From positions 1 through 64,000 of the forward strand of contig MQRK01225091.1 of assembly GCA_001938485.1 (NCBI GenBank): a stretch of 64,000 nucleotides of DNA, written 5' to 3'. The notes under the pieces are model-generated. The model was not told where the DNA came from, did not search any database, and worked only from the letters and a program-made list of their open reading frames with translations. A program made the translations under genes and the position numbers. Of the stretch, positions 14,800 to 58,718 are shown in pieces; position 1 is the first letter of the stretch; each line of letters starts with the position of its first letter. The DNA is from Girardia tigrina (taxonomy: Eukaryota).

Positions 14800-15307
14800 T
14801 ATTAAGAACACCAACATGGGTTTTCGAACTTTTATTTTCAATACAATCAGAATTGTCTTTTGGACAACTCTCAGCAAAACTCTCGTCATTCGACATCGAT
14901 CTAAATTGATGAATTTTAGTTAATGTATTTTAATAAACAATTTTTTCATTATTTTCAAATTTTATTTTTAAAGTTCAAATTTTGTAATTTTAGTAATAAT
15001 TTTATCTACATATTAATTTTATTTAAAAAAATGATTTTATGTAAAGAAAGAACATTTATTTAATTTAAAACTTAGTTAAAACTATTTACTTTATATAAAT
15101 TTTGAATATGAAAATTTGAAACGATTTAATATTTTTAAAGTTTTTTAAATATCTTATGCTGTACTTTAAAATGCAAATTATACTCAAATAATTATCTATC
15201 GTGAACATCTAAAATATCAATTTTCCATCTGGGTGGGAGAAACACATTTCCAAATACTAAACTCAACATACAAAATGCAACATAACAAATTTAAAATATT
15301 CCTCACA
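14800..15307 (-). repeat. TGTGAGG-family dispersed repeat, copy A (Cys-rich ORF start at 14896)
   Basis: Begins tgtgaggaatatt, carries tgtgtttctcccacccagatgg, then MSNDESFAESCPKDNSDCIENKSSKTHVGVLNN. Closely similar to 27968-28503 and 29028-29539. Confidence 0.85.
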
Positions 15308-15631
15308 ATTATTTTTATATATGAAATTGTATACGCCATCTTGCCATGAATGGGAGTCGTGACTATTGTGAACTTTCTAAACTACAAAATTTAGGTTCTA
15401 GGTGCTTTGACCACAGGTGCTTTGACCATAGGGGCTTTGTCCATAGGGGTTTGTCCACAGCGGAGATTTGACCATAGGGGTTTGTCCACAACGGGTGTTT
15501 GACCACAGGGGGTTTGACCATAGTTGATATATATATATATACACTATATGAGAACAAAGAATTTGTTTGTTTTTGATCCCCATTAAGGCTAGTGCCAGGC
15601 CTACTAGATTTAATATTAAACAGAAAGTATT

Positions 15632-16190
15632 CACATACATCATCATCAGCAATATTTGGAAATTTAGTATTTTAATATTTGTATAGTTCTCCATGATTTT
15701 GGCTTGTGTGGGCTAGAATCTAATATTTTAATTGTTATTAATAATATGATTTTAAAATGTATATTAAGTTTAAATAGAATATTTTTTTAATGTATTTTAT
15801 TTTATTAAAGTATTATTGGGTAATAATGGAAAAAATATTTTAATTAAAAATTTTAAGTATTGAAATGACCTTAATGGGCAAAGTAAACTAATTTCAAATT
15901 TAAAAATTTTTAATTAAAATATTTTTGCCATTATTACCCAATAATACTTTAATAAAATAAAATACATTAAAAAAATTCTATTTAAACTTAATAAACATTT
16001 TAAAATCATATTATTAATAACAACTAAAATATTAGATTCTAGCCCACACAAGCCAAAATCATGGAGAACTATACAAATATTAAAATGCTAAATTTCCAAA
16101 TATTGCTGATGATGATGTACGTAATCATCGAAACATGTCCAATAAATATATAAAAGAAGCTTTAATCAAATTATATTTTAAAAATATTAA
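15632..16190. repeat. About 230-bp-arm inverted repeat (PLE pseudo-LTR fold-back)
   Basis: 15636-15866 is the reverse complement of 15891-16119 with few mismatches. The unit is homologous to 44276-44532. Confidence 0.9.
16101..16144 (+). ncRNA. Minimal type-I hammerhead ribozyme
   Basis: TATTG-CTGATGA-T-GATG(tacgtaat)CATC-GAAAC-AT-GTC-CAATA: helix I TATTG/CAATA, complete core, palindromic ACATGT helix III and a GUC cleavage triplet. Confidence 0.85.
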
Positions 16191-16309
16191 AAGCTGTGGA
16201 CAAACCATCTATGGTCAAACCCCCACTGTGGACAAACCTCCTGTGGTCAAACCCCCTATGGTCAAAGCACATGTGGTCAAAGCACCGCGTACCAAAATTT
16301 ATTTTCTTG

Positions 16310-17220
16310 TACGTGCAAATGTGTTCCACTTCTGCTCTTCGATGAATGTTATCACTTCAGTTACACCCCTTGGATAGTAATAAATCGTGTTACTTTCGAA
16401 CCTACATTATCCGAGTTTTATATGAAGCTTCATCCACTGATATGGTGTCGACCAATCTTGATGTTTAATTGTCCGATAGGTCAACACAACAGATTTATCA
16501 TAATGTAAATATTCATGAGACTATTTATTTTCAGTATCAAGAAACGCTTGAAAAAATCTTCCTTGCGAGGGGCTTTTCTCTACGAGTTTCCTCTTTCTTT
16601 CTTACTAAATGAAATGACTCAAAACCATTTTAGTAGTTGGTGTATTATTTCTTGCATCTTTAAATCAATTTTGATAGAATGAGAACCACATATCATTTAT
16701 ATACGAAATCACTTTCATTTTTTCCATTTTTTTATAAAACACTCAAACATACTACTACTTGATGCCAACTTAAGAATACCAAGATCTTCTTCAACTTGCT
16801 CTCCTTTGACTTAGAAAAGAAAAATTAAATGCTTAATAATATTTTATCACACAAGCATCCAACACATAATTAAAACATTTTTGCCGAATTCCTTCAAAAA
16901 GCCCCTCGTATAGCTTCCGAAGCATCGATATCAAACATTTGAAATTAGTAGGCTCTTTTGAACTATCTAAAATTGTTTGAAATATACAAATTTAAAGTCA
17001 TTCTTTCTTTCATTCAAACAAACAGCAATGTAAATCGCATGAAAGGGTCGATCGATACCAGTAATACAAATAATCAACACTGATATACCTTTCCAATTCC
17101 ACTTATATGTTGCATCAGCATCCAATTTGTTCGACTTGTAAACATTTTTAGTCAATCATTTTGTCGAAATGAATTATCTTCAAATTTAACCTCTTCATTA
17201 TCATCATCAACAAACAGCCT
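16310..17220 (-). pseudogene. MULE transposase core relic
   Basis: LDADATYKWNWKGISVLIICITGIDRPFHAIYIAVCLNE, and further downstream NNTPTT../NGFESFHLVRKKEETRRE. Many stops and frameshifts. Confidence 0.8.
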
Positions 17221-19184
17221 TGATGTTTTTATTTTTTTTCATTTTTTATTATATTAAATTCATCATATTATAACAAATAAAATTATTTAATTAATTACTG
17301 AAATTATTAAATTAATTAATCAAGAAATACATTTTTTACTGATCAAGAGCCATTTTTACAGAGCAAAAATGAAAAATAATGTCCATTTAAATACTGAGCA
17401 TTTATTAAAATATATTAATAAAATAATTAAAATACTGATAAATTGAAATAAAAAAAAATACTTACCATTAAATTATAAGCAAAATTTATAACTCGTTTTT
17501 AAATATAAATTTTTGAAAAAAATTATTAAAAAAACTTTTTTAAATCAGGAAACTCAATAAAGTATTAATTCTTCAATAATATTTTTTGTTCAGATTTTTC
17601 CAATTTTATTCGTTATTAATAAATTGCAAAAATATAAATAAAGTTAGAATTCAATATTTCTTTCATCAACGGAAATGCGGCTTGGAAAAAAAACATTACC
17701 ATAGAATGATGAAAAAATAAATTTTTGATTTTTCTTTTCTGTTTAAAAAAATTACAAATGTATATATTCTTGAGAATAATAATTCTTATATTTTATAAAA
17801 AAGAATAATTTAGAGAAATTCGTGTTCAAATTATAATAAACTGATTTTTGCTAAAAAAATCTTATTTTTTGTGAATATTTAAATAAGAGAGTTATAAACC
17901 AGATCAAAGGTTTTCCATTTTAAAATATTTTTATAAGTATAATTAAAATAAAATAGTTTGAATGATATCTTACAAAAATGTTGGTTGACTTGAAGAACAA
18001 AAGAAACTGAATTAAATTATACATGTATTTATTTATAAATGATATGGTTAATTATATAAGCATTTTGTCAAAGCAAGTTTAGATTTTTTTTCATACTTAA
18101 ATTTTATTTTACGGAAAGATCAACATTTAGATCAACATAGTTTTTTCAAGACGTAACTTCTCTTTCTTTCAATATACGTTTCCCCTAACTACAGTCAAAA
18201 AAATGTTTTAAAAGAAGAAACATTTGTCATTAAAAGAAGAATTACAAGTATTTTGCCTGATAGAAATGTAGAGGATGAGTTTTTGGTCTTAAAATAATAA
18301 TTAACTAATAGATTTTTTTTACGTATTTGTCATGTTATATAAATTTTAAACAACTATTTTTAAAAGATTTGACACAATATAGAATATCGGTTTATATTAG
18401 GACAAACTCAAAATGTGTCAGAAGTTTTTGGACAAAAGTTCATCAAGATCCTAAACAAGATTTAGTAGTAACGCGCCTTTTAAATTGTTTTAAATATATC
18501 TCATTAAAATTCAGAAAGTTTGAGACGAAATTTATAATCCGTTTACTAATATAGAAATTGTAAAAATTCTGATATCTACAACAAAATAAAAAGAATCACA
18601 ACTTATATTTAATAGCTAAACTATAAAAAATATTTATTTTAAAAAACGCACATATATTGTTATTGATTCGGCAAGGAAAACTGTTGAGGCCCCAAAGATT
18701 GACGGCATTCTGCTGGATTTAAATATCAGATCAGGGTCTCATCTGAAATGATGTTTCCTAATCGACTGGACAAGGACAATTTCTGAAGTTAGACTTTGAA
18801 AGGATAGCAATTTTCTACAATTTAATGGATTTGGAGTTGAGATTTCGTGTCCACGACTCAAAACTGTTATCTCATTGAGTCAGTTAGAGTTGTAAAATGA
18901 CCGGAAAAATAAAGGAAGCATTTTAGTATGTGTTTTAATGGGATCCAATTAAAAGATTTTACTGAATAGTTTGATGTTAATTACTGATTTCGATAGTCTG
19001 GTCTTTGGAGTGATGTTTTCGCATATAAAACTGTCAAAAAGAAGTTTTTCTAGCTGGAAATAATGGTAAAAGTTTGGATATTCCGGAATCTTCAAATTAA
19101 TAATTGGTTTTTTTAAACAATTCCTGATTAAAAAAGTTAAATCAAATAAATTATAATTAGTGAGGAATCCATAAAAAGTATTTA

Positions 19185-19646
19185 TTATGAAAAAATATTA
19201 AAAGAATCATAATTATTAACAACATCACAATTTGAATGTAAACATTTATTTTCAATACAAACAGATTCTTCACAACAATTCTCAGAGGTCATCTTTCTTT
19301 GATTGATATAGTTTTTTGTTAATATATTCAAATCTAAAAAAACAATGAATGGGAAATTTTTTAATATTAACTTTTAATTTCTCATAATTTTATTGGATAA
19401 AAGTCATTACGTAATTTTTTTAAATAAACATTAATTTTTAAAATATATTAAATTTCATAAGTTAAAATCGTTTACTGAAATTATTAATGAAATTCATAAT
19501 TATCAAACTTTAATTAATTAGTACTTAAAATTAATATCATTAGATTCAAATAATAATAAACATATCAATCCCATCTGAGTAGGAGAGTCACAAATCTAAA
19601 CAGCATAAAAACAACAAACTTACAACATTCCAAATTATCCCTCACA
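19185..19646 (-). repeat. TGTGAGG-family copy D with Cys-rich ORF 19185-19292
   Basis: tgtgagggataat...tgtgactctcctactcagatggg; ORF MTSENCCEESVCIENKCLHSNCDVVNNYDSFNIFS*. Confidence 0.7.
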
Positions 19647-19950
19647 ATAATATTATGACAAAACGAAAAAAAACACAAATTTGAATTTCAATTATAAAGA
19701 ATAATAAAAATAAGCAAAATATACATTTATAATAAACAAAATTTAGACACAATTTCCGCTTCTTTTCCTAATTTAACAATCATTTTATAACAAAATTATT
19801 GTTAATGAATTTTGACCTTTACTTTAAATATATTATTATTTTACGTTAATTTTAAATTCAAAAAATAATATTTAATTCAACTTTAATTTTAAATCTTTTC
19901 AAAAACTAAAATGAATATTTTTTTAATATTTAAAATTTTTCGAAAAACCA

Positions 19951-20214
19951 GGTCTCAAGACAAAAATGAATTTTAAATCAGCTTATATAAGCTAGCAGTG
20001 ATTATGTCATCATTGGATTATTATGTCATTTAAACAAGCTTAATAGAGTTTTTGAGAGATCGATTTGGACATTAATCATAGGATCTAAAGATCTGATATA
20101 AAGTGCTTCACATGCCACCCTCTCCCAATAGTTCTTAAAACGAGCAATCTATTGATGACATAATTCCTGCTTACCGATATAAGCAAATTTAAAAGTAATT
20201 TTTTTCTTGAGACC
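19951..20214 (-). mobile_element. Penelope-like 3' fragment with inverted repeat
   Basis: Minus 20026-20148 reads IARFKNYWERVACEALYIRSLDPMINVQIDLSKTLLSLFK*. 19951-20012 and 20153-20214 are diverged inverted copies. Confidence 0.8.
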
Positions 20215-20589
20215 TATTGATGACTGTTATAACATCTTAAAAAATAAAAATTTATTTTTTTTATAAATTGCGTATTTAATTTACCATAAATTTTAAATAT
20301 TTAATTCTTTTTACCTAGATTTATTCTTTTGTAAATTTATTTTAAATGTTAAATTATTGAATCTCGATCAGCTGAATGAAAATTAACAAATTTCTCATAA
20401 AGATAAAAGTATAAATTTGGAAAAATTATTTCTAATTGTTAGATGAATTTTAATTTTCAAAAAATATTTATTAATGCAACAAAAAAATTATTAAAACAAA
20501 TTTTCGTTTTTATTTTATTATGTTTTTTAAATTTTCTAGATATATATTTTTTCTAGATTTATATTTTTCGTTAATTGATTTACATTTTG

Positions 20590-20895: not shown

Positions 20896-21584
20896 GTTCT
20901 TAAAATCAATAGCTTTTACAGAAAATACCCTACCAAGCGAATAATTTATTTAAATTCTCCTGAGAATATATAATAAATAAAATCCATATAATATCTACAT
21001 TTATAGGTTTTTTAAATAAATGACAAAACTTTAGTTCTTGTCTAATAAAAATTCAAAGCAGACTTGTCTAAATGTTCCTAATAGTAACATAGGGATATTA
21101 TTTACCATGTATCATTAAGAACTTCAAATTCAATTATAAGGCTCCTCCGATATGACGGGTAACTGAGTTTCGACGTTTACAGTAAACTACAGTACCAGCA
21201 TTGTAATACAGGGTACTGGAACATAGACTCTGTATCGGCTAGGAACCATAAATAGATAATATAGAGCCTATTGACTTTCTTTCACGGCTTTAGATGCAAA
21301 TATTCAAAAATATTTTCATTGCCCGTGTCTCTATATAGTTCAGTGGTTTTCAGAAAACGAAGATTAAGGATTTGATGAACCAAAAGATAGAATGGATTCA
21401 ACTTCCTTTTTTAATTAATAAAATTAATACATTCGAACTCTGGTTTAACGAAAAACATGAGGATTGAGAAAATATTCGTTAAAACGGGGTTTGACTGTAA
21501 TGGCCGATCGCTCCCAATTTTATTGAGTATTCATTTTTAACATTTAAAGAATAAAAATCCATATACTTTATCGAAAACATTTTG

Positions 21585-22765: not shown

Positions 22766-22769
22766 ATAC

Positions 22770-23207
22770 TGTGAGGAATATTTTGAATATTTGATGTTTT
22801 GTGTTTGAATGTGTATGTTGATTTGGAACTGTGTCTCTCCTACTCAGATGGATGATTAATGTTTTAATTCTTATTATCTAAAAATATTTAATGTTTAAAT
22901 ATTTTTTAATTTCATATAATTTTAAAATTTTAAATAAGCTAATTAATTTTTACAATTGTTAATAAATAAATCAAATTATTATTTTTTAAATAATTAAAAA
23001 TCATTTCAATTTTTATCCAATAAGTTTTGAGTAAATATTTAAATAAATTATTTATTTCTTCATTTGCTAAAAAATAATAATTATTAATGCATTAATCAAA
23101 TTAGTTTAGAATGCAATCGTATGAAAGCTTTGACAACAGATTGTCTAAAGGACAATCAAAATTGTTGTGTAAATAAAAATATGAAAAGTCAAATTGGTGT
23201 TCTTAAT
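22770..23207 (+). repeat. TGTGAGG-family copy E
   Basis: tgtgaggaatattttg...tgtgtctctcctactcagatgg. ATG at 23111 gives MQSYESFDN, then a frameshift to DCLKDNQNCCVNKNMKSQIGVLN. Confidence 0.7.
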
Positions 23208-23733
23208 ACATATAAAGACGAGATTCTTTATGAATCAGGAATAAGGAAGCTACCGATAAGATAGTAGAAAGAGATTGAAAATAGTATACAGTATATCGGG
23301 TAATCTTATCTGTACAATCGTGACATTTTTTATGATAATTGTAATGTTTTACCTTTCCAACACCAGTAAAGTAAATCAGATTCAGCACAAATAAAATATT
23401 ATATGAGTATATATGTATGTGTATATTTGTGTGAATATATATACGATTGAACAAGTGATTTCTTTAGTCGTTTTTTGTGAGATTTCGTGGATGATATTGT
23501 TTATGTTTGGTATGCGCCTCAACTTTATTTGTAGTATTTTATTTTTATATTTATTTTTTTATCTAATTATTTATTATTATTACCCGTATTTAAATAGTTA
23601 TTATCATTTACTTACCTAAAATTATCCATGGATAATGATAATTACCATGGGATAATACAACTTCAAAAATAAAATCAATAAATAATAGAATTTAAAAAAT
23701 TAATTAATAATTATTATTCGCTGTTTAATAATA

Positions 23734-25010
23734 TTAGGTTGGTCGAAAAATAATGGCGGTTTTGGGACACAAACTTCAAAGACGTGCAAATTCACAGAAA
23801 CAAAAGTTTATTAATCAAAGTATGAACCGTTGGCATCAATACATTTTTGCCAACGAGAAACAAGTTCTTTTATTCCATCAGCATAAAATGTATCGGTTCT
23901 CGAAGCGACGAATTCTTGGAAGGCATTTTCAGCATCATTTTGGTTTTTGAAAGTTTTTTCACGTAGGAAGTTGTACAAATGTCTGAAAAAGTAGAAGTCC
24001 GTTGGCGAGAGGTCTGGTGAATATGATGGATGAAGCAGGGTTTCATAGCCCAACTCATTAAGCTTTTGAAGAGTCCCTTTTGAAATATGAGATCTAGCGT
24101 TATTATGAAGAAGGATGGGACTTTTTTCATTGACCAATCCCGGACAAAAGGGTTTCAATTTCTTATGCATTTCATCAATTTCATGACAGACCTCTCCGCT
24201 GTGATTGTTTCACCTGGATTCAAGAAACTATAGTAGATGATTCCAGCATCACACCACCAAACTGTCACCATAACCTTACGGGGTGTTAGTTTCGGTTTTG
24301 GAAAGTGTNNNNNNNNNNNNNNNNNNNNNNNNNNNNNNNNNNNNNNNNNNNNNNNNNNATCCATTTCTCATCACAGGTAACAATACGATCAAGAAATGGA
24401 TCGTTTTTATTGCGAAGATGATTGACAGAACAAATTTCATAGCGTCGGTTCTTTTGATTTTCATTCAAATCACGTGGGACCCATTTATCAAGTTTTTTGA
24501 TTTTTCCAAGTTGTTTTAAATGACCTAGGACTGTTGAATGACTAATGCCCAACCCATCTGCAAGTTCTCTGCTTGTTGTATGGGGATCTGTTTCCACCAT
24601 TGTCCTCAAATTGTCGTTGTTCACAGCAACTGGACGACCACGACCTTCTTCATCTTCAAGGTTTTCATCTTCATCAGAAAATTTTCAGAACCATCATTGC
24701 ACTATGCGCTCAGAAGCTGTTCCCTTTCCAAACGCTTTATTGATATTGTGAGTCGTTTCTGCTGCTTTACGACCCAGTTTGAATTTGTACAAGAAAATTG
24801 CTCGAATTTTAATTTTTTCCATTATTAATTTAGCACCGTAAATATTCTAAAAAATAACAGCAATATGTTAATAATGGCTATATGAATATACAGCTAGGCA
24901 TAAGAATTCAAATAATATCTAACACTAATGCATTTAAACTTATATACATATAAAAGTAGATAAACAAAGTATAAAGCTCAAAAACCGCCATTATTTTTCG
25001 ACCAACCTAA
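23734..25010 (-). mobile_element. Mariner DNA transposon, full-length, same family as 1286-2541; disrupted transposase about 23811-24822
   Basis: Perfect TIRs ttaggttggtcgaaaaataatggcggtttt with TA TSD. WVPRDL, IVTCDEKW, HNNARSH, HPSYSPDLSPTDF and RWQKCIDANGSYFD are present, with frameshifts. Confidence 0.95.
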
Positions 25011-25429
25011 TACACGATTGCTACAATTATTATTAGTTTTGCTAACGTGGATAATGTATTCCAACAAATACTGAGAATCCTAAAGAAAATACTCATTTTC
25101 GACAACTTATCAATTAAGTAATTACTAGATTAAATCATTGTAACTTTTTGCAACTCTTGAATGCACTCTAGATTAGTTTCGTTCGTTTTCAATTCGTTTT
25201 CAAGCTTTTCCTTACATAAAAGTATCTATTTGTTGTTTTTTTTAAATGAAACTGCAATTTTTTCAAAAAATACTCATAAATGCAACTTTAATTGCAACTT
25301 CAGATGAAAGATAGTATTTTTTTCCACTATGTTGACCTTTTCATACAACCTACTTATGATTTTTTTTCTAAATTTTATTTGATTTTTTCATTTTTTCTGA
25401 TATTTACCCGAATTTTTCATTTTTTAAAA

Positions 25430-27967: not shown

Positions 27968-28503
27968 AATTATTAAGAACACCAACATGGGTTTTCAAAC
28001 TTTTATTTTCAATACAGTCAGATTTGTCTTTTGGACAACTCTCAGAAAAACTCTCGTCATTCGACATCGTTCTAAATTGATAATTTTTTTGTTAATGTTT
28101 TTAATAAACAATTATTCGAACAAATATTTCATTATTTTCTGATTTTATTTTTACAGTTCAAATTTTGTAATTTTAGTATCAATTTTATTTACATATTAAT
28201 TTTATTTAAAAAATATTTTATTGAAAGAAGAAACATTTATTTAATTTAAAACTTAGTTAAAACTATTTATTTTATTTAAATTTTAATATGAAAATTTGAA
28301 AAGATTTAATATTTTTTAAGTTTTTTAAATATCAGCATGATGTACCTTAAAAATATAAATTATACTCGAATAACTATTTATCGTGAACATCTAAAATATC
28401 AATTTTCCATCTGGGTGGGAGAAACACATTTCCAAATACTAAACTCAACATACAAAATTCAACAAACCAATTTCAACATACCAAATTTCAAATATTCCTC
28501 ACA
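27968..28503 (-). repeat. TGTGAGG-family copy B
   Basis: Highly similar to copy A; ATG at 28067 gives MSNDESFSESCPKDKSDCIENKSLKTHVGVLNN. Confidence 0.85.
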
Positions 28504-29027: not shown

Positions 29028-29539
29028 TGTGAGGAGTATTTTAAATTTGGTATGTTGAATTTTGTATGTTGAGTTTAGTATTTTGAAATGTGTTTCTCCC
29101 ACCCAGATGGAAAATTGATATTTTGGATGTTCACGATGAATAATTATTCGAGCATAATTTGCATTTTAAATTACAGCATAAAATATTTCAAAAACTTTAA
29201 AAACATTAAATCGTTTCATATTTTAATATTAAAAATTTTAATAAAATAAATAACTTTCAACTAATTTTTACATTGATTAAATGTTTTTCTTTAAATAAAA
29301 TCATTTTTAAAATATAATTAATATGCAGATCAAATTATTACTAAAAGTATAAAAACTTTAAAAATAAATTCTGAAAATAATTAAACTATGTTCGAATAAT
29401 TGTTTGTCAAAAAACAAAAAATTATCAATTTAGAGCTATGTCAAATTCTGAAAGCTTTGCTGAGAGTTGTCCAAAAGACAATTCTGATTGTAATGAAAAT
29501 AAATGTTGGAAAATCCATGTTGTTTTCTTAATAATGTGA
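29028..29539 (+). repeat. TGTGAGG-family copy C (divergent from copy B)
   Basis: tgtgaggagtatt...ctcccacccagatgg; ORF 29438-29539 MSNSESFAESCPKDNSDCNENKCWKIHVVFLIM*. Confidence 0.85.
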
Positions 29540-29672
29540 AAGATTAACTTTTGGTTAGTAAATATATTTAGTAAACATTTAGTAAACATATAGTTTTCTC
29601 AAACGACATTTGATGCCCATTGTTTGTTTGCGCGCTCTTGCCAAAATATGTTGTGGTTAAGTACCATTATGT

Positions 29673-30522
29673 TTACAACTGTAAATAGGACTGTTTCAAA
29701 ATTACAAAATCTCGAGACATGACAATATTATTATTAACAACATCAATATGAGTTTTACAACATTTATTAATTATCACAAGCGCATTCACTATTTGGCATT
29801 TTTCTTGATATAAATAAAAATATATTTCTGAATTCATACTAATTATTTTCAATAAATGAAAATCTGGTAATAAAAATGATCTTATCTTATAAAAGCCCAA
29901 GTCACTCACTGCCTGCCTCACTGCCTCACTAACGCTGTAAGGTAAATTTTTGAAATGATTTTATAATCAATAAAGAAATGATTGTATATTAATNNNNNNN
30001 NNNNNNNNNNNNNNNNNNNNNNNNNNNNNNNNNNNNNNNNNNNNNNNNNNNNNNNNNNNNNNNNNNNNNNNNNNNNNNNNNNNNNNNNNNNNNNNNNNNN
30101 NNNNNNNNNNNNNNNNNNNNNNNNNNNNNNNNNNNTATACTCGAAACACTGAAATTTTCAATAAAAATGCTTTCAGAAAAAAGTCGCGTGATCTAATAAC
30201 ATTGAACCCCCGGCAAGAGAGGGCCGCGAAGCGGGCCGAGCGCGCTAGTTAATTATAAAGAATGTAATTGGTTGAAATTAAATCTAAACATTCTTGAAAA
30301 AGAACGTATTAAATTAATACATTAAAATTTTAAATTACATTAAAAAATAAATAATAAATTCAAAAATTATTTTAAATCTTTTTACTTTAAAATATAATTA
30401 AATTATTTTTAATTAGTAGGAATCAAAGAAAATACCAATCATCCATTTGTGCAGGAGAGACACAATCCGAATAAACACACAACATGCACAATATCAACAC
30501 ACGATTCAAAACATTCCTCACA
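29673..30522 (-). repeat. TGTGAGG-family copy F, interrupted by a Helitron-like insertion
   Basis: tgtgaggaatgtt...tgtgtctctcctgcacaaatgg at 30522-30440. The ORF remnant NKCCKTHIDVVNNN lies at ~29725-29770. Confidence 0.6.
29880..30248 (+). mobile_element. Non-autonomous Helitron-like element
   Basis: Starts TC after A, has a cact/gcct microsatellite, a subterminal GC hairpin ggccgcgaagcgggcc and a CTAG end before T. Contains an N gap. Confidence 0.75.
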
Positions 30523-32339: not shown

Positions 32340-33280
32340 ATGAGATAAAATTATTGATACAATTCCTCCAATCAGCCTCTTTCTAAAAGCGCTATCCAAC
32401 CAAAGAGTGCTTCAAAGATCTGAAAAGATAAAATTAGATAAAGGCAGATCTGGAGAAAAGACGTAAAATTGTATATTTCGTTGTGGTAATAACATAGGGG
32501 CGAGCATTGTCAAGGAAGAGGATGATCTTCCTTGTACTATGACCAAATAAAGGCCGCAATTCTTCGATTTTACTTCTGGGTTTGAGTAACTCATAGTAAA
32601 TCACTCCTTTTGTCATCTTATATTACAGAAGCTTCATTCCAGTCTGACAGTGAGATTATTACTTGAACAGGGTGTATCCATGATCTTTTGTGCTATTGAT
32701 TCTCGTATTGAACCAATTTCTTGTTGCCAGTGAAAATTCACCAAAGAAACAATTTTCGATGATGACGTGCGTAAAGTTAGATGCATAAACATAATATTCT
32801 AGTAATATTTGGTAGAATATTACCCAGGGCTTGCAAATTCACTAGAAGAGCGGATGGGTTCATTCCAAGTTGTAAACTAAGTTCACTTTGCCATGGACAG
32901 TATCCTTATATGATAGTGCTTGCAATTCGGTACTCTCCATTTCTTTGGGTCTGCAATTTCTCTTTTTATTCTCCAGGACATATTCCCCACTTCTGAACTT
33001 TTGGAACCAAAGCTTAATCGTAGTAAAGGCCACTGCATCATATCAATACAGTTGACATATCAAAGCCTTTGTTTTTGAATGGTTTTTCCAAGCTTAAACA
33101 TGAAAAGCATATAATGTCTAACATGCATCTCGTTGGTTTCCATTATTAAACGTATTTAGAAAACGAAATGTGTAAAAAAGGATTTTATTGAAAACAAAGA
33201 TCGAAATATAGATACAAAATATTGAATATATATAAACATAATATTAAGGGAGCAGCAATAACTTTTGCATGAAACTAATA
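32340..33280 (-). mobile_element. Degenerate mariner element
   Basis: METNEMHVRHYMLFMFKLGK (start ~33143), WFQKFRSG, KGVIYYELLKP and IILFLDNARPYV. A TIR-like aacttttgcatgaaactaata lies at ~33260-33280. Confidence 0.8.
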
Positions 33281-39258: not shown

Positions 39259-39315
<57 letters not shown>

Positions 39316-40188: not shown

Positions 40189-40341
40189 CAGGGTGTCCCA
40201 AAAATATGTATACACATTAAAAATTTAATTTTATTGAATTTTATTGAATTTTATTTATGTTTAACTTTCATTAACATAATGAAAGTATAATAAAAGTTAA
40301 ACATAAATAAAATTCAATAAAATTCAGTAAAATTAAATTTT
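40189..40341. mobile_element. Palindromic Tc1/mariner MITE (right end lost in N gap)
   Basis: TA-CAGGGTGTCCCAAAAATATGTATACACATTAAAAATTT... is mirrored by ...aaatttttaatgtgtatacatattttt before the gap. Confidence 0.75.
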
Positions 40342-40887
40342 TAATGTGTATACATATTTTTNNNNNNNNNNNNNNNNNNNNNNNNNNNNNNNNNNNNNNN
40401 NNNNNNNNNNNNNNNNNNNNNNNNNNNNNNNNNNNNNNNNNNNNNNNNNNNNNNNNNNNNNNNNNNNNNNNNNNNNNNNNNNNNNNNNNNNNNNNNNNNN
40501 NNNNNNNNNNNNNNNNNNNNNNNNNNNNNNNNNNNNNNNNNNNNNNNNNNNNNNNNNNNNNNNNNNNNNNNNNNAAATTTTATTTACATGTGGCTTTAAT
40601 TGTACTTTAAGTGAATTCTGACTACAGTTTTTAATGCGATGTTCTAATAATAAATATATAAAATTGCTGGAACGAACAACTAAACAACATATTTATGTTT
40701 GAAAATCTCAATAAAATGTTTTGCTATTTGAAAAACAAATCATAAAAGTACTTGGCAAAGATTATTTAATTTGAAATTTTCTTTTCTATATCAAGTTAAT
40801 TGTTATACAAACTATTATTACAATTTCAGTTACTATTTTATAATTACTATAAATGTTGAAGGAGGTTTTCGATCGTAGAAGTATTTA

Positions 40888-41549: not shown

Positions 41550-42539
41550 TTATGTTAGAAAAGAAAGAAATGTGACCAATTTTATTCCACGATTTCTAAC
41601 TACAGAAAAGAGACCGAAACGGCTCGGAATATTAACAATGTGTTTGGGCAACATACCACTAATTTACGAACAGTACAACATTATTTTTACGAAGTTTCGT
41701 AGTGGCAACGAGAGTCTTGAAGATAAAGAACACGGTAGTCGACCATCACAAGTTGACGACGACCATATGAAGTAGTTAATCAATGCCGACCCGCATAAAA
41801 ATTCACGGAAAGGCCCTCAAGTCCATCTGAAGAAAATCAAGACAGTGAAAAAACTGGACATGTCGATGCCGCACGAATTAAACAAAAATCTAAAAAATCG
41901 TCGTTTTCACGTGTGTTCTTTTCTGCTTTTGCGTAATCAAAGTAACCCGTTTCTATATCGAATTGTAACATGCGATGAAAAATGGATTCTAAACGACACC
42001 CAGCGACGTTCAGCTCAGTGGTTCGATTTCAATGAGGCTCCAAAGCCTTTCCCGAAGCCAAAATTTCACCAAAAAAAGTCATGGTAACTGTTTGGTGGTC
42101 CGCACACGGTTTAATTCATTAAAGCTTCCTAAAACAAGGCGAAACAATTACAGCGGAAAAGTATTGTCAGCAAATTTACAAAAAGCACCAAAAACTACAA
42201 AAAAACAACCGGCATTACTCAATAGAAAGAGGCCAATTCTTCTGCATGACAACGCTCGTCCACATGTTGCAAGAAAGACCATGCTGAAGTTAAACGAACT
42301 GGAATATGAAACTTTGCCTCATCCTCCGTACTAAGCAGACCTTTTTCTTACAGACTATCAGCTTTTCAAACATTTCAGCCAGTTCCTTTGCAAAAAATGC
42401 TTCAGAAACCAAAGGAGATGCTGAAAAAGCCTTGGACGACTTCATCGCCCCCAGAACTCCAAAAATTTATGAAACTGGAATAAAAAAACTTGTTACCCGT
42501 TGGCAACAGTGTGTTCAATGTAATGGTTTTTATTTTTAA
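41550..42539 (+). mobile_element. Degenerate mariner element
   Basis: KFRSGNESLEDKEHGSRP, MPHELN, IVTCDEKWI, LLHDNARPH, LPHPPY and RWQQCVQCNGFYF over several frames. Confidence 0.9.
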
Positions 42540-43992
42540 ATAAACTTTATAAATAAATAAAAATAATAAACATGAAATAAAATAATGATAAAATAATCCA
42601 CAATTAGAAATAATATATTATATTAAATATTATAATAATAATTACGGATCTTGTAACAATATTATTTAATAAAAATAATGGTAATATGTCTTCAAAAACC
42701 CATTATAATAAAATTTATTTTTCGTAATCGCCTTTTATAATTTTAATGGGTTTATTTTATTTAAATTCAGCATTTTCTTAATAATAAGATCAAACAATTT
42801 TATAAATTCTGAGCGACAAAAAATCAACAAAAATGTAAATATAGCTCTCCTGAGAGAGATAATAAAAAAGTCGAAAATAGGTTGAATGAATTTTATAACT
42901 TAGCAATATTTATTGAAATTATTTCTTACTAATAAAAAAATATTATAATTTCTTCGAATAAATAAACAAATTGTATAAAAGATCAAAAATATTTATGTTA
43001 ATGTGAAAAACAACCATGACAAAAATAATTTAAAAAATATTATTTATTTGTTATTATATGATGAAATGTGTTTATATTTCCCTAAAATATATAATGGTAT
43101 TGTTTAAAAAATTGTATTTATTTATTTATATTAATTATGAATTTTTTAAATAATGTTCAATAGAATATTCAGAAATGTTTTTGTAAATTATAGGATCATT
43201 TATTTTCTTCTAAGAATTTAAAAATATAAAAAGTGCAATTGCATACAGACAGCGGTTACTATGGACAATTCATACGTTCCTATAAAAAAAGATAAAAGTT
43301 AACTTGAAAGTGGTTCACTTTATCCTTTAATTGTATGGTAGTTGAAATAGAAAAGGATTTAAATATTGCAAATTTATGGTATAAATAATTTTTTATACAA
43401 TAATGAATTAAAATATTAAGAATTAAAAATAAAATGAACCTTTATTATTTGTAAAATCTTAAAATGGAAAATACAAGTTATTTAAATCAAAATATTTATA
43501 TGACTCCAGTCTCGATCGTTGATGTTTTCGATTAATTATAGAATAGATTCTCTTAGAATAAAGTTAAAGTTGATATTGAGATAGACAAATAATGTGATTT
43601 GTTAGATGGGGTCCTCAATAGTTTTGTTTCGGTAAATCTTTGGCAATAGTGTAGATAAATTAATGGTTTAATAATAGAACAAGGACGTCTGTAGGATAAT
43701 TTCGTTCGTTAATAATTTTTGTTATTGATGAGATAACTCCAAATGAGTAAAAAATTATCTAATATGAGTTAAAAACAGCTCACAATAAAAAATAATGCTA
43801 ATTAGTTACGACTTATATTCCATAACTAAATCAATATCACTATGAAATTTGTATAATGTATTTAAATATTGCATTTAAATATAATATAAACAATTACTAT
43901 TGAATTAAAATTTTTATGTAATTTATTATAAATGTAACACTTCTGATTGTGGCTGCTTATAGTATGGCTCAACAGATAGGACTAATATTAAA

Positions 43993-44048
<56 letters not shown>

Positions 44049-44079
44049 AATAATTTGATTAAAGCTTTTTTTATATAAT

Positions 44080-44123
44080 TATTGGTAATTTTTCGATGTT
44101 TACATACATCATCATCAGCAATT
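44080..44123 (-). ncRNA. Hammerhead motif, mutated helix III and cleavage site
   Basis: ATTG-CTGATGA-T-GATGT(atgtaa)ACATC-GAAA-AATTAC-CAAT; the GUC is replaced by UAC. Confidence 0.6.
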
Positions 44124-44451
44124 TTGGGAAAATCGTCATCGCAAAACCCGGATTAGCGAGTACTCGCAAATGAGTCGATCGAGTAAGGTTCTTGATCATT
44201 GGTTATGTTGTAAGGATAGAACCTCATCCATTCAAAAGATGAGTTTTCTGTTCTACAAAAGGGTTTTGATTCACATTAAAATATTTCAAATTTTTAATTA
44301 AAATATTTTTTGCCATTATTACCGAATAATATTTTCATAAATAATAATGTTTAATTTTTTTGATACCTTTTAAAGTAAATTATATCTATTAAAATTGTAT
44401 TAAAATTGTTTTATTCAAACAATTCAATATTCATTTACTAAACATCCGAAA

Positions 44452-44493
44452 ATTGCTGATGATGATGTATATAAACATCGAAACATGTCCAAT
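44452..44493 (+). ncRNA. Minimal type-I hammerhead ribozyme
   Basis: ATTG-CTGATGA-T-GATGT(atataa)ACATC-GAAAC-AT-GTC-CAAT; intact core, same family as 16101. Confidence 0.85.
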
Positions 44494-44565
44494 AATTATA
44501 TAAAAAAAGCTTTAATCAAATTATATTTTCGAAATACTAAACTTGCGTTCACAATATTAAATACG

Positions 44566-47244: not shown

Positions 47245-49231
47245 GCACTCAAAATTATTTTAGAAAAAAAAAGGGAATCTTAAAACTAATTTATTTGTAA
47301 ATATGCAATTAAAAGACTAAAAATTGGAAAAAATTTAATTTGTTTAAAGTAGAAAACGATTAATTTGGAAAGAACGTATTTTTTGTATCAAATATTAAAA
47401 GGAAATGTTAAGCTTCCGAATAAATTAATGACTTTTGTTTAAGCATTTATATATTCGTGCCAATAAAATATTTTGCAATTGAAGAAAGGAAAAACAGTAG
47501 CTGGTAAATTTGCTTTTAGTGAAATGGAAATCGTTTTTTTTCATATAATTAATTTAATTTAATTTATTTTGTTTTAAAGATCAATCATTCCACTTGAAAT
47601 AAAAATATCTCTTTTTTATTTAATTCTGTTTTAAAGTTTATCTAATTCTCTTTGTCTTTCAGCGCTTCGTACTTTTTTTGTTAAGTTTCCATTTAATGAT
47701 ACTCTAAAATTTAATTTTATTTATTTATTTTTTTAGTGATTGAAAATTTAGAAAAGTAAAAAAAACTATTTCTGAGTCAAATACGAAATTCTTTTAACTT
47801 TTTTGGTTTTAATTCAATACTTATATTTTCGATAATTCTTTATTTTTTATTGACAATAATAGTTTTTTTAAGATAAAAACCTTCCAACGTTTTAAGAAGG
47901 TCTTGGGCTTGTATGTTTAGGTCTAAAGAAACAGTTTTCACTAAAATTCTCCTAAGTTTTAAGTCATGAACGTATTGAAATAGTCATGAAATGAAAATCA
48001 AATTAAGAATAAAAAATAAAAAAAAATATTTTAAAAATGTAAATTTAGATAAAAATTAATAAATTATTTAATTCAGAAGCATTTTAGAACATAACAATAC
48101 CAGTATTGTAATTTTACTTGTTTCTATTGTTTTATTGTTTCTATTTACAAACTTTATTCTGTCATGTGTATTATTTTCATCTTTTTTTAAAAGTATTATA
48201 AATATGGAATTTTAAAATTTAACTACAAACAATTTAATACTTATCTATAGAGATTAATGTTTCATTTATTTTTAATTTTAACGGTTTTTACGAAGTTTCT
48301 GAAAGCACAAAACATTATGATATGAAACTATTTATTAAGCATTAAGACGTTTTTAAACATTTGTCCTTAAATAAATTATTATAAATTTTGCAAAAATATT
48401 ATCTTTAAAATACCATACAACAACAATTTTTATTCAAATTTATCTCTTAAATAATTCAAGAAGGTTTCTGTCACGACATGACAACATATTATGAGAGCCT
48501 CCCAGAAGCGTCGTCTTACTCTTTAGCGAAAATATTTTTTTAGTGAAGTAAAAAATAATTATCCAAATACTGACATTTTGCTATTTATCACTACAACAAT
48601 GGGCATTATTTGGTTGCTTTCAAGTATCTTTTTTGTATCAGTCAGCAAAATTTAATCGTTTTATAGAAATGGTTGTAGTATACGTCTACTGTAATTAACA
48701 TATACGGGTTTATCAACCCTTAGATAAAATAAAGCAGCATAATCATTCAAACATAAAAATAATTATTTTAGTCAGTATTTAGTTTTAATCAATTTTAGTG
48801 CTTCATAATCTAAAGTAACTTGCAATTTTTTTTGCAATTGCAATTACAAAGTAATTCAAACTTCGAGACAATAGCTACTATACATTACATGAAACCTGTC
48901 ATTAGGAACAGGACTTTTATTCTACCCATTTATTTACAGGATTCAATGTTTTTAAATTATAATATCAAATCATGTTACTAAGTTTCTTACAGTCTGAGAT
49001 TAGATTTAGTTTGTTCTTCTAGGTTAACACAAACATATCATTTTCAAGAACAATATCGCGAAAACTTTTTTCTATAATTATTAACTTATACTCTGTTTTA
49101 CATCTTCAAAAAACATAACATTGATATTTTAATAGTCTAAGTATTTGGTCTGTGATTTGATTTTTATCTTAAAATTCTAATACTTACAAAATAATTTTAC
49201 GAAAACCCGTTGAGAGATTAAAAATAGTAAT

Positions 49232-49362
49232 TAAAAAAACCAATTAGAACGATGTCAAACCGTAAACGATCGTCCGAGATTTGTAATGACACTAAATGTG
49301 CTAATAATAAATATTTTAATGAAAATTATCTCAATGTTCTTAATCTTTATATTCTATTTTAA
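49232..49362 (+). repeat. Partial TGTGAGG-family copy H (ORF part only)
   Basis: aaaaaaaccaattagaacgATG; ORF 49252-49362 MSNRKRSSEICNDTKCANNKYFNENYLNVLNLYILF*. The start is near-identical to that at 58582. Confidence 0.6.
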
Positions 49363-51514: not shown

Positions 51515-51815
51515 AATTGTATTAAGAACATTTAAACACGTCTCATTTGAATTTTTATTGCAATTACATTTAGAGTCATTAATTGCAATAATTTTACTAA
51601 AAAAAATATTAAACTTAATTTTAATTTCGAAATTAACGATATGAACTTATCAAATGATTATTTTAATTATGTTGGAATAGTCAATCACTTAAATTTAATA
51701 AAAAATACCAATTTCCATCTGGGTGTGAGAATCACCATTCTAAATTCAACATACTTAAATCAACATACATCATCCATACATTTACACATTCAAACAATTT
51801 AAAATATTCCTCACA
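51515..51815 (-). repeat. TGTGAGG-family copy G
   Basis: tgtgaggaatattttaaatt...gtgattctcacacccagatggaaattgg; ORF remnant NDSKCNCNKNSNETCLNVLN. Confidence 0.7.
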
Positions 51816-53849: not shown

Positions 53850-54230
53850 AATGAACAATCCGATCGTATTCTAGTATGATTTGAACCAATTAAAATGTTA
53901 AATTATCAACTGAAATGGCTTTTTTGACATTTTGTACAATTTTTCCATCTTCTTCGAAATTCTTGACTTTTTCACGAATTTCAAGCAATTACACTGAACA
54001 ATTATGAACTGCATTCATCCATGTACCCCACTTTGTAACAAAATCTGGTGGCTTCTCAACGTCTACAGATTTATCTGAACATTTACTATTTTAGAGCATA
54101 TCAAAAAATCAACGCCTTTGAATTTCAAGCAAATTTTCATACAGCAGTTGTGCAATAGTTTGGAGATACATGTGATATGGACCATTTCTGAATACATTTT
54201 CTTCTGAATTTCAGTGGCCAAAATATTTTC
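53850..54230 (-). pseudogene. hAT-like transposase fragment
   Basis: VEKPPDFVTKWGTWMNAV resembles the PPxxxxTRWGTWL block of hAT/CGGBP-type transposases. Confidence 0.45.
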
Positions 54231-54637
54231 AAAATATTTACTGATCTAAGGACTATTTTTATTTTCTCAAATCAAATTTTTCAGTTTTTACAACTTTTCT
54301 AATTCACTTTTTCAAATAAAATTTGACTTAAAATCTAAAATTTAACGTAATAGACCAAACAAAAGTTTCTCCCAATACTAAAAAAAGCATATTTAGCAAC
54401 TAAATTTATATTTTTATGCATTTTTATTAGAAATTAAAAAAAATCACTTTATTGGTTGCCCTTTTTTGGGTGGATTTTAACTGTTAATTAATTATAAAAA
54501 TATTAGGGACCTGGCTTTTAATAGGATATAGCAAGGTTAGGGTTATATCAATCACAGTTTTAAAAACAAAATAAAATTTTTGTTAACGAGACTTTTTCTT
54601 GAATTAAAAAAGGGCAAATAAAGAAAATATTTGTATC

Positions 54638-56062
54638 ATGAATAAATTCCTGTTTAAATCACGAAAACAGATGAATCAAAACGATATTAGCGATAATTGT
54701 AATAATTGGGCGAGCAANNNNNNNNNNNNNNNNNNNNNNNNNNNNNNNNNNNNNNNNNNNNNNNNNNNNNNNNNNNNNNNNNNNNNNNNNNNNNNNNNNN
54801 NNNNNNNNNNNNNNNNNNNNNNNNNNNNNNNNNNNNNNNNNNNNNNNNNNNNNNNNNNNNNNNNNNNNNNNNNNNNNNNNNNNNNNNNNNNNNNNNNNNN
54901 NNNNNNNNNNNNNNNNNNNNNNNNNNNNNNNNNNNNNNNNNNNNNNNNNNNNNNNNNNNNNNNNNNNNNNNNNNNNNNNNNNNNNNNNNNNNNNNNNNNN
55001 NNNNNNNNNNNNNNNNNNNNNNNNNNNNNNNNNNNNNNNNNNNNNNNNNNNNNNNNNNNNNNNNNNNNNNNNNNNNNNNNNNNNNNNNNNNNNNNNNNNN
55101 NNNNNNNNNNNNNNNNNNNNNNNNNNNNNNNNNNNNNNNNNNNNNNNNNNNNNNNNNNNNNNNNNNNNNNNNNNNNNNNNNNNNNNNNNNNNNNNNNNNN
55201 NNNNNNNNNNNNNNNNNNNNNNNNNNNNNNNNNNNNNNNNNNNNNNNNNNNNNNNNNNNNNNNNNNNNNNNNNNNNNNNNNNNNNNNNNNNNNNNNNNNN
55301 NNNNNNNNNNNNNNNNNNNNNNNNNNNNNNNNNNNNNNNNNNNNNNNNNNNNNNNNNNNNNNNNNNNNNNNNNNNNNNNNNNNNNNNNNNNNNNNNNNNN
55401 NNNNNNNNNNNNNNNNNNNNNNNNNNNNNNNNNNNNNNNNNNNNNNNNNNNNNNNNNNNNNNNNNNNNNNNNNNNNNNNNNNNNNNNNNNNNNNNNNNNA
55501 GCTTTTGGACTACTCGATTATTCCAGACAGTCCATTGCCTTCTAAAGCTATACCTTGTCCGGATAAAAAAGATAAAAACATTTCCTCCAACATCAATGAT
55601 AGAACCATTGATTTTTCACGTGAAAACTTTGACAGTCCATTAAGAAAGAATAATTCTTGTATACTGAATCAAGCTGTGATTCTTGAATCACCCAATACAA
55701 TATCCGACTTAGATGATTCTTCTTATGTCTTCAAAACACTTCAGAAACCGGTCAGGTCGGCCGTAAACAAATCGAATGTGAATGATGTATCTTATATCTG
55801 TTCACCTATTGTACGTCAACGATTTAAAGCGATGTCTAATTCTAACGGTCACAGTTATGAGAATGAATCTGACGCAATTAGTTTCCTTAATTCATCAATG
55901 CTGACAGAAGTATCAAGCTTATGCTTTCAAAAATACAAATGCCTTAAAGTACTCGGAGAAGGAGGATATAGCAAGGTGTTTGAAGCTATCAAATTAAGAA
56001 CCTCTGCGGAGATACAACAAGCCCTATATATAAGTAAACATTTATCTATAAAACTACTTTAA
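54638..56062 (+). CDS. Protein kinase gene fragment (Ser-rich N-terminal region plus kinase subdomain I); partly in N gap, possibly truncated
   Basis: Open frame 55500-56062 ends FQKYKCLKVLGEGGYSKVFEAIK (GxGxxS Gly-rich loop). No downstream catalytic motifs were found. Frame continuity across the ~780-nt gap is unverified. Confidence 0.6.
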   Translation: MNKFLFKSRKQMNQNDISDNCNNWASXXXXXXXXXXXXXXXXXXXXXXXXXXXXXXXXXXXXXXXXXXXXXXXXXXXXXXXXXXXXXXXXXXXXXXXXXXXXXXXXXXXXXXXXXXXXXXXXXXXXXXXXXXXXXXXXXXXXXXXXXXXXXXXXXXXXXXXXXXXXXXXXXXXXXXXXXXXXXXXXXXXXXXXXXXXXXXXXXXXXXXXXXXXXXXXXXXXXXXXXXXXXXXXXXXXXXXXXXXXXXXXXXXXXXXXXXXXXXXXXXXXXXXXXXXXXXXXXXXXXXXLLDYSIIPDSPLPSKAIPCPDKKDKNISSNINDRTIDFSRENFDSPLRKNNSCILNQAVILESPNTISDLDDSSYVFKTLQKPVRSAVNKSNVNDVSYICSPIVRQRFKAMSNSNGHSYENESDAISFLNSSMLTEVSSLCFQKYKCLKVLGEGGYSKVFEAIKLRTSAEIQQALYISKHLSIKLL

Positions 56063-56920
56063 ATCATCGAAATTTCTTATAAGCAATTTTATTATAAAAT
56101 AGTTAAGTATTTTATTTACAAACTTCTGATGTAAAAGAAATATTTAATTTATTTTTATTATAATATTTTTTTAAATAAAATCGAATTTAATTAAATTATA
56201 TTTGGAAAATTAATTTCATTTATCACTTGAGATATTTATTTCATTTTTATGATTTCATTTATTTCCTAAATGCTTGACATTTAAATATTATATATTTCAT
56301 TTTTAACAGAAACCACGACGTAATTAAAACTTGACTAATTAAAATATTTAATTATGTCAATAATTAAAATTAAAAATATTTTTGTTGAAAAATAAATTTA
56401 AAATTTTTAAAATTGGATTTTTTTCATATTCCCCTGTTTTATAAAAAAATATTTAAAGGTAATGGAGTAATAGACAAATAAATTATGTAAAATGTTATAT
56501 ATATACATATATATATATATATATGATTGTGTGTATTTATATATAAACAAAATATAAATGAACAAAATACACATCCATAAATTTATAAATAATTTAAATA
56601 CTTATGTTAAATTTTTCTTTTTTATAGTTCAATTAAGTTTGATAAAGAAGAAAAAGTAAAATAATATTTTTTTCAAAATATATTTTTAACAGAAGCTCGG
56701 ACATTCATTTCAGAAAGTGAAAAGAAGTAATTAAATGGAGAATGCATTAAAATAAATTGGATAATAAGTTATCAAATTATTTAAGTCATTCATGAATAAT
56801 TTAACTTTCTTTATTTTATCTTTTTTTAAAATAAAGGTAATTTTTTTTAGTTAAAATTTGTTAAATTATTAAAATAAATGTTTTAACCTTTAATAAATAA
56901 ATTTGTTTTAAATATAATTA

Positions 56921-58204
56921 TTAGGTGTATAACTTAGTTTGTGGATTTTTTTGCAGAACAGACAAGTTTATTTATATGACATAATAAGTTTTATTCTAAT
57001 CAAAATATTTTCCATAGTTTATTATGACTTTCGACATTCTTGCAGGCAAATTATGAATTCCATTGAAAAAAAAGTTTTGGTCTTTTGATGCGATCCATTG
57101 TTCCAGTTATTTTTTATATGTTCCTGGTTTCTGAAGTGCTGGTCCCGAAGAGCGCTTTGCATTGATCGGAACAGACGATAATCTGATGGGGCACAATCTG
57201 GTGAATAGGCAGCATGCGGTAGAATTTCCCATTTAAGTGCTTCCAAAGTGTTTTTTATTTGTTTTGCGACATGTGGCCGAGCATTGTCATGGAGCAAAAT
57301 CACTTGCGCTGTTTGTTGGCTGGAATAGGACGTTTTTCCTTCAATGCATCGTTCAATTTCATTAACTGTTGTTGGTAACGTTCTGCATTAACAGTTTCAT
57401 TCGAATTCAGCAGCTCATAGTACAGTACACCTTTCTGATCCCACCAAATGCACAACATAACCTTGCTTCCATGAATGTTTCTTTTTGCTGTTGACGTGGA
57501 CGGTTCGCCGGGATGATTCCACGATTTCTTGCGTTTAGAGTTAACATAATAAATCCATTTTTCATCTCCAGTCACAATATTATGCAAAAACGACCACCTT
57601 CGTTGTCTTGTAAGCAATGAATTGAATATCAGTAATCGACTTTCAATGTTGGCTTGATTCAATTCATGTGGTATCCATTTTCCTTCTTTTTGAATCATTT
57701 TCATAGCATGTAGACGTTTACTTATGGCTGCTTGAGTAACATTTAACTGTTTTGCAAACTCTTTCTCTGTTTGAGTAGAATCTTCCTTCAGTAATGATTC
57801 CAAATCTTCATCTTCGAATCTTTTTGGTTGACCAGAACGCTCTTTGTCACTTACGTCAAAATCTCCACTTTTGAAACGTTAATACCAGTTCTCGAAAGTC
57901 TGTTGAGTTGGTGCATGTTGACCATAAGTTTCTTCAAGAAGCCGAAAACTGTCTGCAGCTTTTTTCTTGTGATTAAATCAAAACAGTAGTGCTTCCCGCA
58001 AATGCTGTTTTGTTGGTATGAAAGTTGTCATGCTAAAACGTGATTAAAAATATGTTTATGACGCATTTAAGGTCAATGACTTATTTAATTTTAATGCCTC
58101 GATTTCAGCACTTTAAAAATCTGTACGTACGACTGTAAAATAATGCTTATTACAAATGTTACACCATCTCTTAGAAAATCCAAAAAACTAAGTTATTCAC
58201 CTAA
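56921..58204 (-). mobile_element. Mos1-like mariner, full-length, disrupted transposase about 56996-58031
   Basis: TIRs ttaggtgtataacttagtttgtggatttt / aaaatccaaaaaactaagttattcacctaa with TA TSD. MTTFIPTKQHLREALLF, WIPHEL, IVTGDEKWIYY, VMLCIWWDQKGVLYYELL, LLHDNARPH and YSPDCAPSDY are present, with stops and frameshifts. Confidence 0.95.
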
Positions 58205-58581
58205 TAATATATTATTCAAACAAATCAGAATTCATCCATTAAATGACAGATTTCATAAGAAATTAGACAGTGTTTGCTTACTGCGGCTAAAATTCAAATC
58301 AAATTTTATTTTTGTAAAAAAAGAAGAGTATTTAAATGTATTTTATAAGTTTCGAAAATATTAAAGTATATTTTTTATAATAGATTTTTGTCTGGGATGT
58401 TTAATATAATGAACTTTTAAATTAAATTTATTTTTTACAATTTGATAAAAAATTTTATTATTTGGAGTTCTTATAAAGAAATGGTTAAAATTATTAATAT
58501 TAATAAATATTTATGGACAAAAAATATTTTATTAAGATTTAGAAATTTTTTTCGAATAATCATTATTAAAAATAAAGAAAT

Positions 58582-58718
58582 AAAAAAAACCAATTAGAAC
58601 GATGTCAAACTGTGAACGATCTTCCAATAGTTGTGATGACTGTAAATGTGATAATAATAATTGTTCAAATAAAATTATTTCTGTGCTCCTACTCTCATCG
58701 ATTACTTTAATAATCTAA
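58582..58718 (+). repeat. Partial TGTGAGG-family copy I (ORF part only)
   Basis: ORF 58602-58718 MSNCERSSNSCDDCKCDNNNCSNKIISVLLLSSITLII*. Confidence 0.6.

Follow-up and report, generated by a model that had tools for sequence, protein, structure and literature searches.

A dispersed repeat family and its ends

The DNA considered here is a stretch of 64,000 nucleotides from Girardia tigrina (contig MQRK01225091.1 of assembly GCA_001938485.1, positions 1 to 64,000 of the forward strand; hereafter the window), which has a G+C content of ~25% and is rich in mariner/Tc1 remnants and palindromic repeats, with one reverse transcriptase (RT). Dispersed through it is a repeat family beginning with TGTGAGG, which an initial annotation, made from the letters alone, had described without assigning it to a known element. 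This word occurs exactly seven times in the window, each time heading a family copy, at the coordinates and on the strands originally given. Whole copies are named below after the position of this terminus, and fragments after that of their 3' end. When the first 140 nt are used as a profile, the seven copies from which it was itself built are recovered (E ≤ 7e-19), nothing else in the window scores below E 0.5, and no matches are obtained in the reversed window. A profile of the 3' end adds four fragments (E of 4e-8, 2e-7, 5.5e-7 and 1e-4; best E in the reversed window, 2), which include the two pieces already noted at 49252 and 58602 together with further ones at ~9020-9144 and 60282-60376. 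For these four, neither the 5' profile nor a search for TG plus a target-site duplication (TSD) within 0.9-1.2 kb located a 5' end. Very weak profile matches at 59263-59347 and 21042-21083 (E 0.03-0.26) may be scraps of long terminal repeats (LTRs). In total, eleven pieces (seven whole copies and four fragments) are counted in 64 kb, the whole copies occupying ~4.9% of the window; three of these, which constitute subfamily A, are 81-95% identical along their full length.

Agreement between the aligned copies stops at a far end, ...TTAATA, which gives lengths of 296-533 bp (791 bp in copy 30522, which contains a nested insertion). The five bases ahead of TGTGAGG recur after this far end, perfectly in four of the seven copies and at 4/5, 3/5 and 2/5 positions in the others (29/35 bases). 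When duplication lengths of 3-10 are scanned, perfect pairs are found at five only; a length of four gives none in seven copies (6/28 bases), and a length of two gives three. Re-pairing of the flanks reaches the total of 29/35 in 8/5040 permutations and the number of perfect pairs in 24/5040, and 0/200,000 random-site trials match the observed TSDs, with the caveat that the target sites are AT-rich and similar to each other. An exchange of TSDs through inversion between copies 29028 and 30522 receives no support from the flank cross-matches (3/5 and 2/5).

The LTR terminal consensus is given as TGTTRNR...YNYAACA in PMC3601003 (in part). The 5' heptamer fits this at six of seven positions in all seven copies, and the 3' heptamer at six positions in five copies and five in two, with TA in place of CA throughout. 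None of the whole copies has the canonical CA, which is present in fragment 9144 (7/7 fit). The non-canonical LTR termini that have been reported for plants include TGTA (10.1101/137141, in part). End-anchored inverted matches amount to 4-6 of the first 10 nt and 12-19 of the first 40 nt, and no long inverted repeat is found.

Between the two ends, the box CTCC..C.CAGATGG had been ascribed to every full copy; it is exact in five of the seven, and variants of it are present in copies 30522 and 51815. Different subfamilies are 61-76% identical in the 5' part, up to the box, and 54-69% identical over the last 105 nt, against about 46-54% for shuffles. The intervening spacer, previously described as hardly alignable, indeed aligns between subfamilies at the level of shuffled sequence, and has a G+C content of 10-19% in the six copies without the nested insertion. 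AATAAA ends 31 nt from the far end in five of the seven copies and 30 and 34 nt from it in the other two (background rate 0.022), and its position is not fixed when the copies are read in the opposite orientation; since the copies share ancestry, neither these positions nor the end fits are seven independent events. TATA[AT]A is found in three of the seven copies, at unrelated positions. AATAAA, a GT-rich stretch after it, and R and U5 regions more conserved than U3 are listed as LTR features in PMC3601003 (in part), Table 1 of which has training LTRs averaging 174-695 bp, a range overlapped by the copy sizes of 296-533 bp. Conservation of the ends over the spacer is the normal LTR pattern by that source. 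A mobile promoter with an attached gene family, one of the options raised initially, is not supported.

Every one of the whole copies is a separate insertion, sharply delimited on both sides, with a 5-bp TSD, LTR-type heptamers and a fixed AATAAA and without long inverted repeats. Because this combination is the anatomy of a solo LTR, the repeats are very probably solo LTRs and truncated LTR pieces from an LTR-retrotransposon family that comprises four or more subfamilies and ends in TG...TA; they are not a gene family. The far end, the TSD and the position of AATAAA are additions to the initial annotation, among whose options an LTR-type TGT terminus is the one borne out by the two-ended insertion, the 5-bp TSD and the consensus ends. 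The family is real but ordinary in kind, its kin being Gypsy, BEL/Pao or Copia, and it may already carry a name.

Several observations weigh against this interpretation. No full-length parent, primer-binding site (PBS), polypurine tract, gag, integrase or LTR-type RT was found in the window. Two of the seven whole copies lack a clear TSD, one perfect TSD (copy 15307) sits in an (AAT)n microsatellite inside a 12-bp direct repeat, and the far end was chosen by eye from the alignment, ahead of the TSD test. The non-canonical TGTA precedents in 10.1101/137141 (in part) are from plant genomes. Finally, the 3' end is retained by all four partial copies and no copy is reduced to a 5' end alone, a bias that decay of solo LTRs does not predict.

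The Pfam scan covered 210 stop-free frames, comprising 208 of the 263 frames of at least 50 aa (those with a G+C content of at least 25%) and two added frames. Matches were to mariner/Tc1, one RT, SAICAR synthetase and weak ones, with no LTR-element internal domain among them; the long intact members with RT, integrase or transposase that the initial annotation envisaged are not found for this family in the window. Likewise, no internal domain was found in 18 X-read frames adjoining five copies; the 12 of these that lie downstream of the four fragments gave one weak, irrelevant match. A candidate PBS, TGG at +1 after copy 30522 in the opposite orientation, was rejected: six X-read frames over 2.1 kb matched no Pfam families, and AATAAA is unfixed there. 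Rfam gave a single, microsatellite-driven miRNA match outside the family, and ARAGORN identified no tRNA genes in the window.

On the model of established LTR biology, integrase would insert the full element by a 5-bp staggered cut, and recombination between its LTRs would remove gag-pol and leave one LTR between the two halves of the TSD, a process of solo-LTR formation described in 10.1101/137141 (in part). Decay, deletion and nested insertion would follow. The ends may stay alike between subfamilies because they carry the integrase, promoter and 3'-processing signals, with the middle (U3) free to drift.

Table 1. Positions of the repeat family's pieces and of associated features in the window; LTR designations follow the interpretation judged very probable in the text.
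Feature	Position	Strand	Remarks
Probable solo LTR, subfamily A	14800..15307	-	508 bp; TG...TA; perfect 5-bp TSD inside (AAT)n run, the weakest TSD; target is a MULE/SWIM remnant
Probable solo LTR, subfamily D	19214..19646	-	433 bp; perfect 5-bp TSD
Probable solo LTR, subfamily B	22770..23208	+	439 bp; TSD 4/5; frame broken close to start
Probable solo LTR, subfamily A	27971..28503	-	533 bp; perfect 5-bp TSD
Probable LTR copy, subfamily A	29028..29533	+	506 bp; TSD 3/5 (decayed or recombinant)
Probable LTR copy	29732..30522	-	791 bp including nested insertion; no TSD (2/5); no internal domain found past 30522
Probable solo LTR, subfamily C	51520..51815	-	296 bp; internally shortened; no ATG; perfect 5-bp TSD
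Related-LTR 3'-end fragment	9020..9144	+	canonical YNYAACA end, 7/7
3'-end fragment, subfamily C	49217..49345	+	3' profile; initially noted at 49252
3'-end fragment, subfamily C	58565..58694	+	3' profile; initially noted at 58602
3'-end fragment, B-like	60282..60376	+	3' profile; weakest match, E 1e-4
Conserved 5' box, example copy	22837..22851	+	presumed U3 cis element
AATAAA, example copy	23172..23177	+	presumed polyadenylation signal; ends 31 nt before 3' end, then GT-containing stretch
Cys/Asn-rich frame	14801..14896	-	32 codons; last 97 nt of LTR; lacks its own stop
Nested insertion in copy 30522	29878..30251	-	includes N gap 29994-30135
Flank, not element: SWIM zinc-finger/MULE C-terminal remnant	14654..14779	-	source of the apparent tail of the copy 15307 peptide

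The cysteine-rich frame at the 3' end

A short Cys-rich open reading frame (ORF) had been proposed for each copy. Such a frame does cover the last 79-97 nt of the element, but it is intact from ATG to element end in only three of the seven whole copies (15307, 28503 and, with 26 codons, 19646); frameshifting indels follow the ATG in 22770, 29028 and 30522, and 51815 has no ATG. The frame crosses the far end without a stop of its own, and AATAAA falls inside the 'ENK' of its translation. It is probably the R/U5 end of the LTR read as codons, which in a solo LTR runs on into target DNA. The tails acquired in this way are unrelated in all seven whole copies (4-49 aa). That of copy 15307 is the SWIM zinc-finger remnant of its target, and a homology search with the 81-aa read-through of this copy gave one match, to the flank alone.

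The same boundary is visible in database proteins. A profile of ten window peptides, run against 1.84 billion representatives, matched five proteins at E ≤ 0.001, one of which (P0009) is an unrelated repeat protein and was excluded. The other four match residues 1-31/32 only and then continue into unrelated tails of 7-50 aa, all six tail pairs lying within the shuffled range; the residue after the match is M, I, N or T in all four, each of which can be encoded by a codon beginning with A, as expected from the boundary. Two of these proteins are like copy 22770 and two like 51815, 49345 and 58694, and the latter resemblance ties fragments 49345 and 58694 to a whole, TSD-flanked copy. The peptide matches no Pfam family.

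There is no excess of synonymous differences of the kind that the dN/dS analysis suggested in the initial annotation might have detected: two sets of five pairs give 11 against 11-13 expected and 8 against 12-15, the multiple alignment gives 7 against 10-14, and differences by codon position are flat (88/90/94), although with such short frames these tests have low power. Single close pairs have ratios of nonsynonymous to synonymous differences (pN/pS) of 0.29-0.65 on 4-13 differences; the value for 49345/58694 did not take a 1-bp indel into account and is replaced by the two-set pair test. The reported placement of the ATG 1-4 nt after TTAG holds in 8 of the 11 copies. The arrangement is a single inherited site, however, and donor-like GT follows the box in only two of the seven copies, leaving the accompanying proposal of a splice acceptor weak.

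A refinement of the solo-LTR interpretation, which we regard as possible but would advance only tentatively, is that the frame is real: a Gag or leader ORF would start ~97 nt inside the 5' LTR and run through the LTR end and the PBS. In yeast Ty1, the GAG start lies inside the LTR. The Ty1 PBS lies within the GAG ORF according to PMC4974528 (in part), and the frame described here runs past the end of the LTR in the manner of a Gag start, being open but unconstrained. No in-register stop is found in the 11 aligned copies (322 codons), whereas the two remaining forward registers contain 9 and 75, and neutral star-tree simulations lead to an expectation of 6.5-10 stops in eight lineages (P(0) ≤ 0.001). 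Intact copies belonging to different subfamilies have their ATG 97, 94 and 79 nt from the end, all in one register, and the pN/pS values of the single close pairs, on few differences, also speak for a kept frame. Set against this are the synonymous and codon-position results above; a pairwise deficit of stops that is weak (2 against 4.4-6.7, P 0.035-0.18); the choice of the stop-free register after the fact, when 31% of random 96-mers from the window have one such register; and the finding of no Gag-sized protein beginning with the peptide among the 1.84 billion representatives at E ≤ 0.001. It is more doubtful that the family represents an animal LTR lineage with fixed TG...TA ends and a Gag or leader starting inside the LTR, possibly behind an LTR intron; a literature search for LTR-internal Gag starts or animal TG...TA ends returned nothing on point, which does not show their absence from print. 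A Gag start within the LTR, if real, would add modestly to the known anatomy of animal retrotransposons and provide a testable source of new ORFs. Each solo LTR would then leave a promoter, a start codon and ~32 codons pointing into the flank, a seed for new genes present at high density.

Alternative explanations

It is improbable that the repeats are non-autonomous cut-and-paste DNA transposons with very short, degenerate terminal inverted repeats (TIRs), dependent on a Ginger/Tdd-like or other integrase-type transposase. The TGT start, the short TSD and the failure to see a parent with RT in the window would fit, as would the Ginger ends following TGTNR and the 5-bp TSDs of Tdd-4/5 (PMC2836005, in part). 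The same source, however, gives TIRs of ~40-270 bp for Ginger1 and 45-297 bp for Ginger2/Tdd, against inverted matches of 12-19/40 here, and 4-bp TSDs for metazoan Gingers (CCGG/CCGT in Ginger1), with 5 bp only in Tdd-4/5; furthermore, a fixed AATAAA close to one end is an LTR trait. The Ginger-type terminus suggested initially is thus set aside, there being no TIR of 40-270 bp and the TSD being 5 bp.

More improbable still is a SINE-like retroposon (short interspersed element), copied by a long interspersed element (LINE), with some copies truncated at the 5' end and with a (TAA)n tail. It would account for the retention of the 3' end by 4/4 partial copies, and copy 15307 does end in (AAT)n, with the 12-bp direct repeat further out (3/1500 random pairs reach 12); fragment 60376 has a 5-bp match 129 nt upstream, and there is an apparent LINE-type RT at 63450. 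Yet seven copies have one exact 5' end in common, the TSD is fixed at 5 bp, a repeat tail is present in only one of the seven, no tRNA or relevant Rfam head was found in the window, and both ends fit the LTR terminal consensus.

Least probable of all is the lineage-specific family of small Cys-rich genes, with its own promoter and intron, that the initial annotation had also considered: an intron-like AT-rich spacer ending in TTAG right before the ATG (8/11 copies) and the scarcity of in-frame stops are outweighed by the lack of a common C-terminus or stop, homology that ends at the TSD in the window and at the corresponding boundary in 4/4 database proteins, the SWIM/MULE origin of one tail, a frameshift or lost ATG in four of the seven whole copies, donor-like GT in two of seven, and the absence of a Pfam family or a synonymous excess.

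Neighbouring sequences and known systems

The MULE-type SWIM zinc-finger remnant (14654-14790 and 15308-15400) is split by copy 15307, where the 12-bp direct repeat and (AAT)n around the LTR suggest that a small insertion had previously occurred there. The ~370-bp insertion in copy 30522 carries a short tandem repeat and, near its terminus, a GC-rich stretch, and by its end motifs presumably resembles the Helitron-derived HINE/DINE elements. A perfect 5-bp repeat, 129 nt apart, brackets the weakest fragment (60248-60376), in which the frame runs to 71 codons; this may be chance or a short inserted piece.

Elsewhere in the window, mariner/Tc1 remnants are found at 1283-2543, 23731-25012, 41776-42548, 56901-58225, 7799-8227 and 32863-33042, the first two being 90-97% identical. 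Long palindromes or inverted repeats resembling miniature inverted-repeat transposable elements lie at 3987-4197, 13238-13622, 15387-16300, 19950-20215, 40200-40361 and 44041-44541; two of these border on N gaps and could be artefacts of assembly. The frames of the palindrome at 13238-13622 have no Pfam match, and we take them to be similar to the tail of a Penelope-type GIY-YIG protein. At 62566-63869, broken RT and endonuclease-like frames, for which Pfam gives RVT_1 only, apparently belong to a LINE of RTE type. A SAICAR synthetase/ADE2 fragment at 11180-11900 has in-frame stops nearby and shares 49-56% identity with five ADE2 proteins, of which three carry names assigning them to a mollusc and two hemichordates. 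It has the appearance of either a pseudogene or the degraded remains of a gene for purine synthesis, and its matches point to an animal host without singling out a group. Two frames appear host-like: one at 55502-56062 ends in a kinase-like start and had no matches in a homology search, and a helical one at 59752-60279 gives only weak, low-recognition HEAT-repeat look-alikes in Atlas.

For annotation, the solo-LTR interpretation implies that tools requiring TG...CA ends would miss these LTRs, and that gene callers turn LTR ends into spurious small Cys-rich proteins, of which the four database proteins look like examples.

Among known systems, Ginger1 and Ginger2/Tdd are alike in a TGTNR-like start and, for Ginger2, an AT-rich target, but differ from the family described here, which has no long TIR, a TSD of 5 bp rather than the 4 bp of metazoan members, and no transposase found for it in the window (PMC2836005, in part). 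The likeness to yeast Ty1, in which a GAG frame covering the PBS provides a precedent (PMC4974528, in part), is one of layout. Plant non-canonical LTR retrotransposons (TGTA/TACA) from the LTR_retriever survey share the TG...TA ends, the 5-bp TSD and short LTRs, although they are mostly Copia and the host here is an animal (10.1101/137141, in part). The solo LTRs of animal Metaviridae (Gypsy/Ty3, including the Sushi and Mag clades), BEL/Pao and Copia are alike in their size of a few hundred bp, near-consensus heptamers, AATAAA near the 3' end followed by a GT stretch, conserved ends and a short, fixed TSD; in Sushi in particular, U3 is T-rich and AATAAA lies near the end. The G. tigrina family differs from these animal groups in its 3' terminus, which is TA in place of CA in each of the seven whole copies, and in the frame of 26-32 codons that leaves the 3' end.

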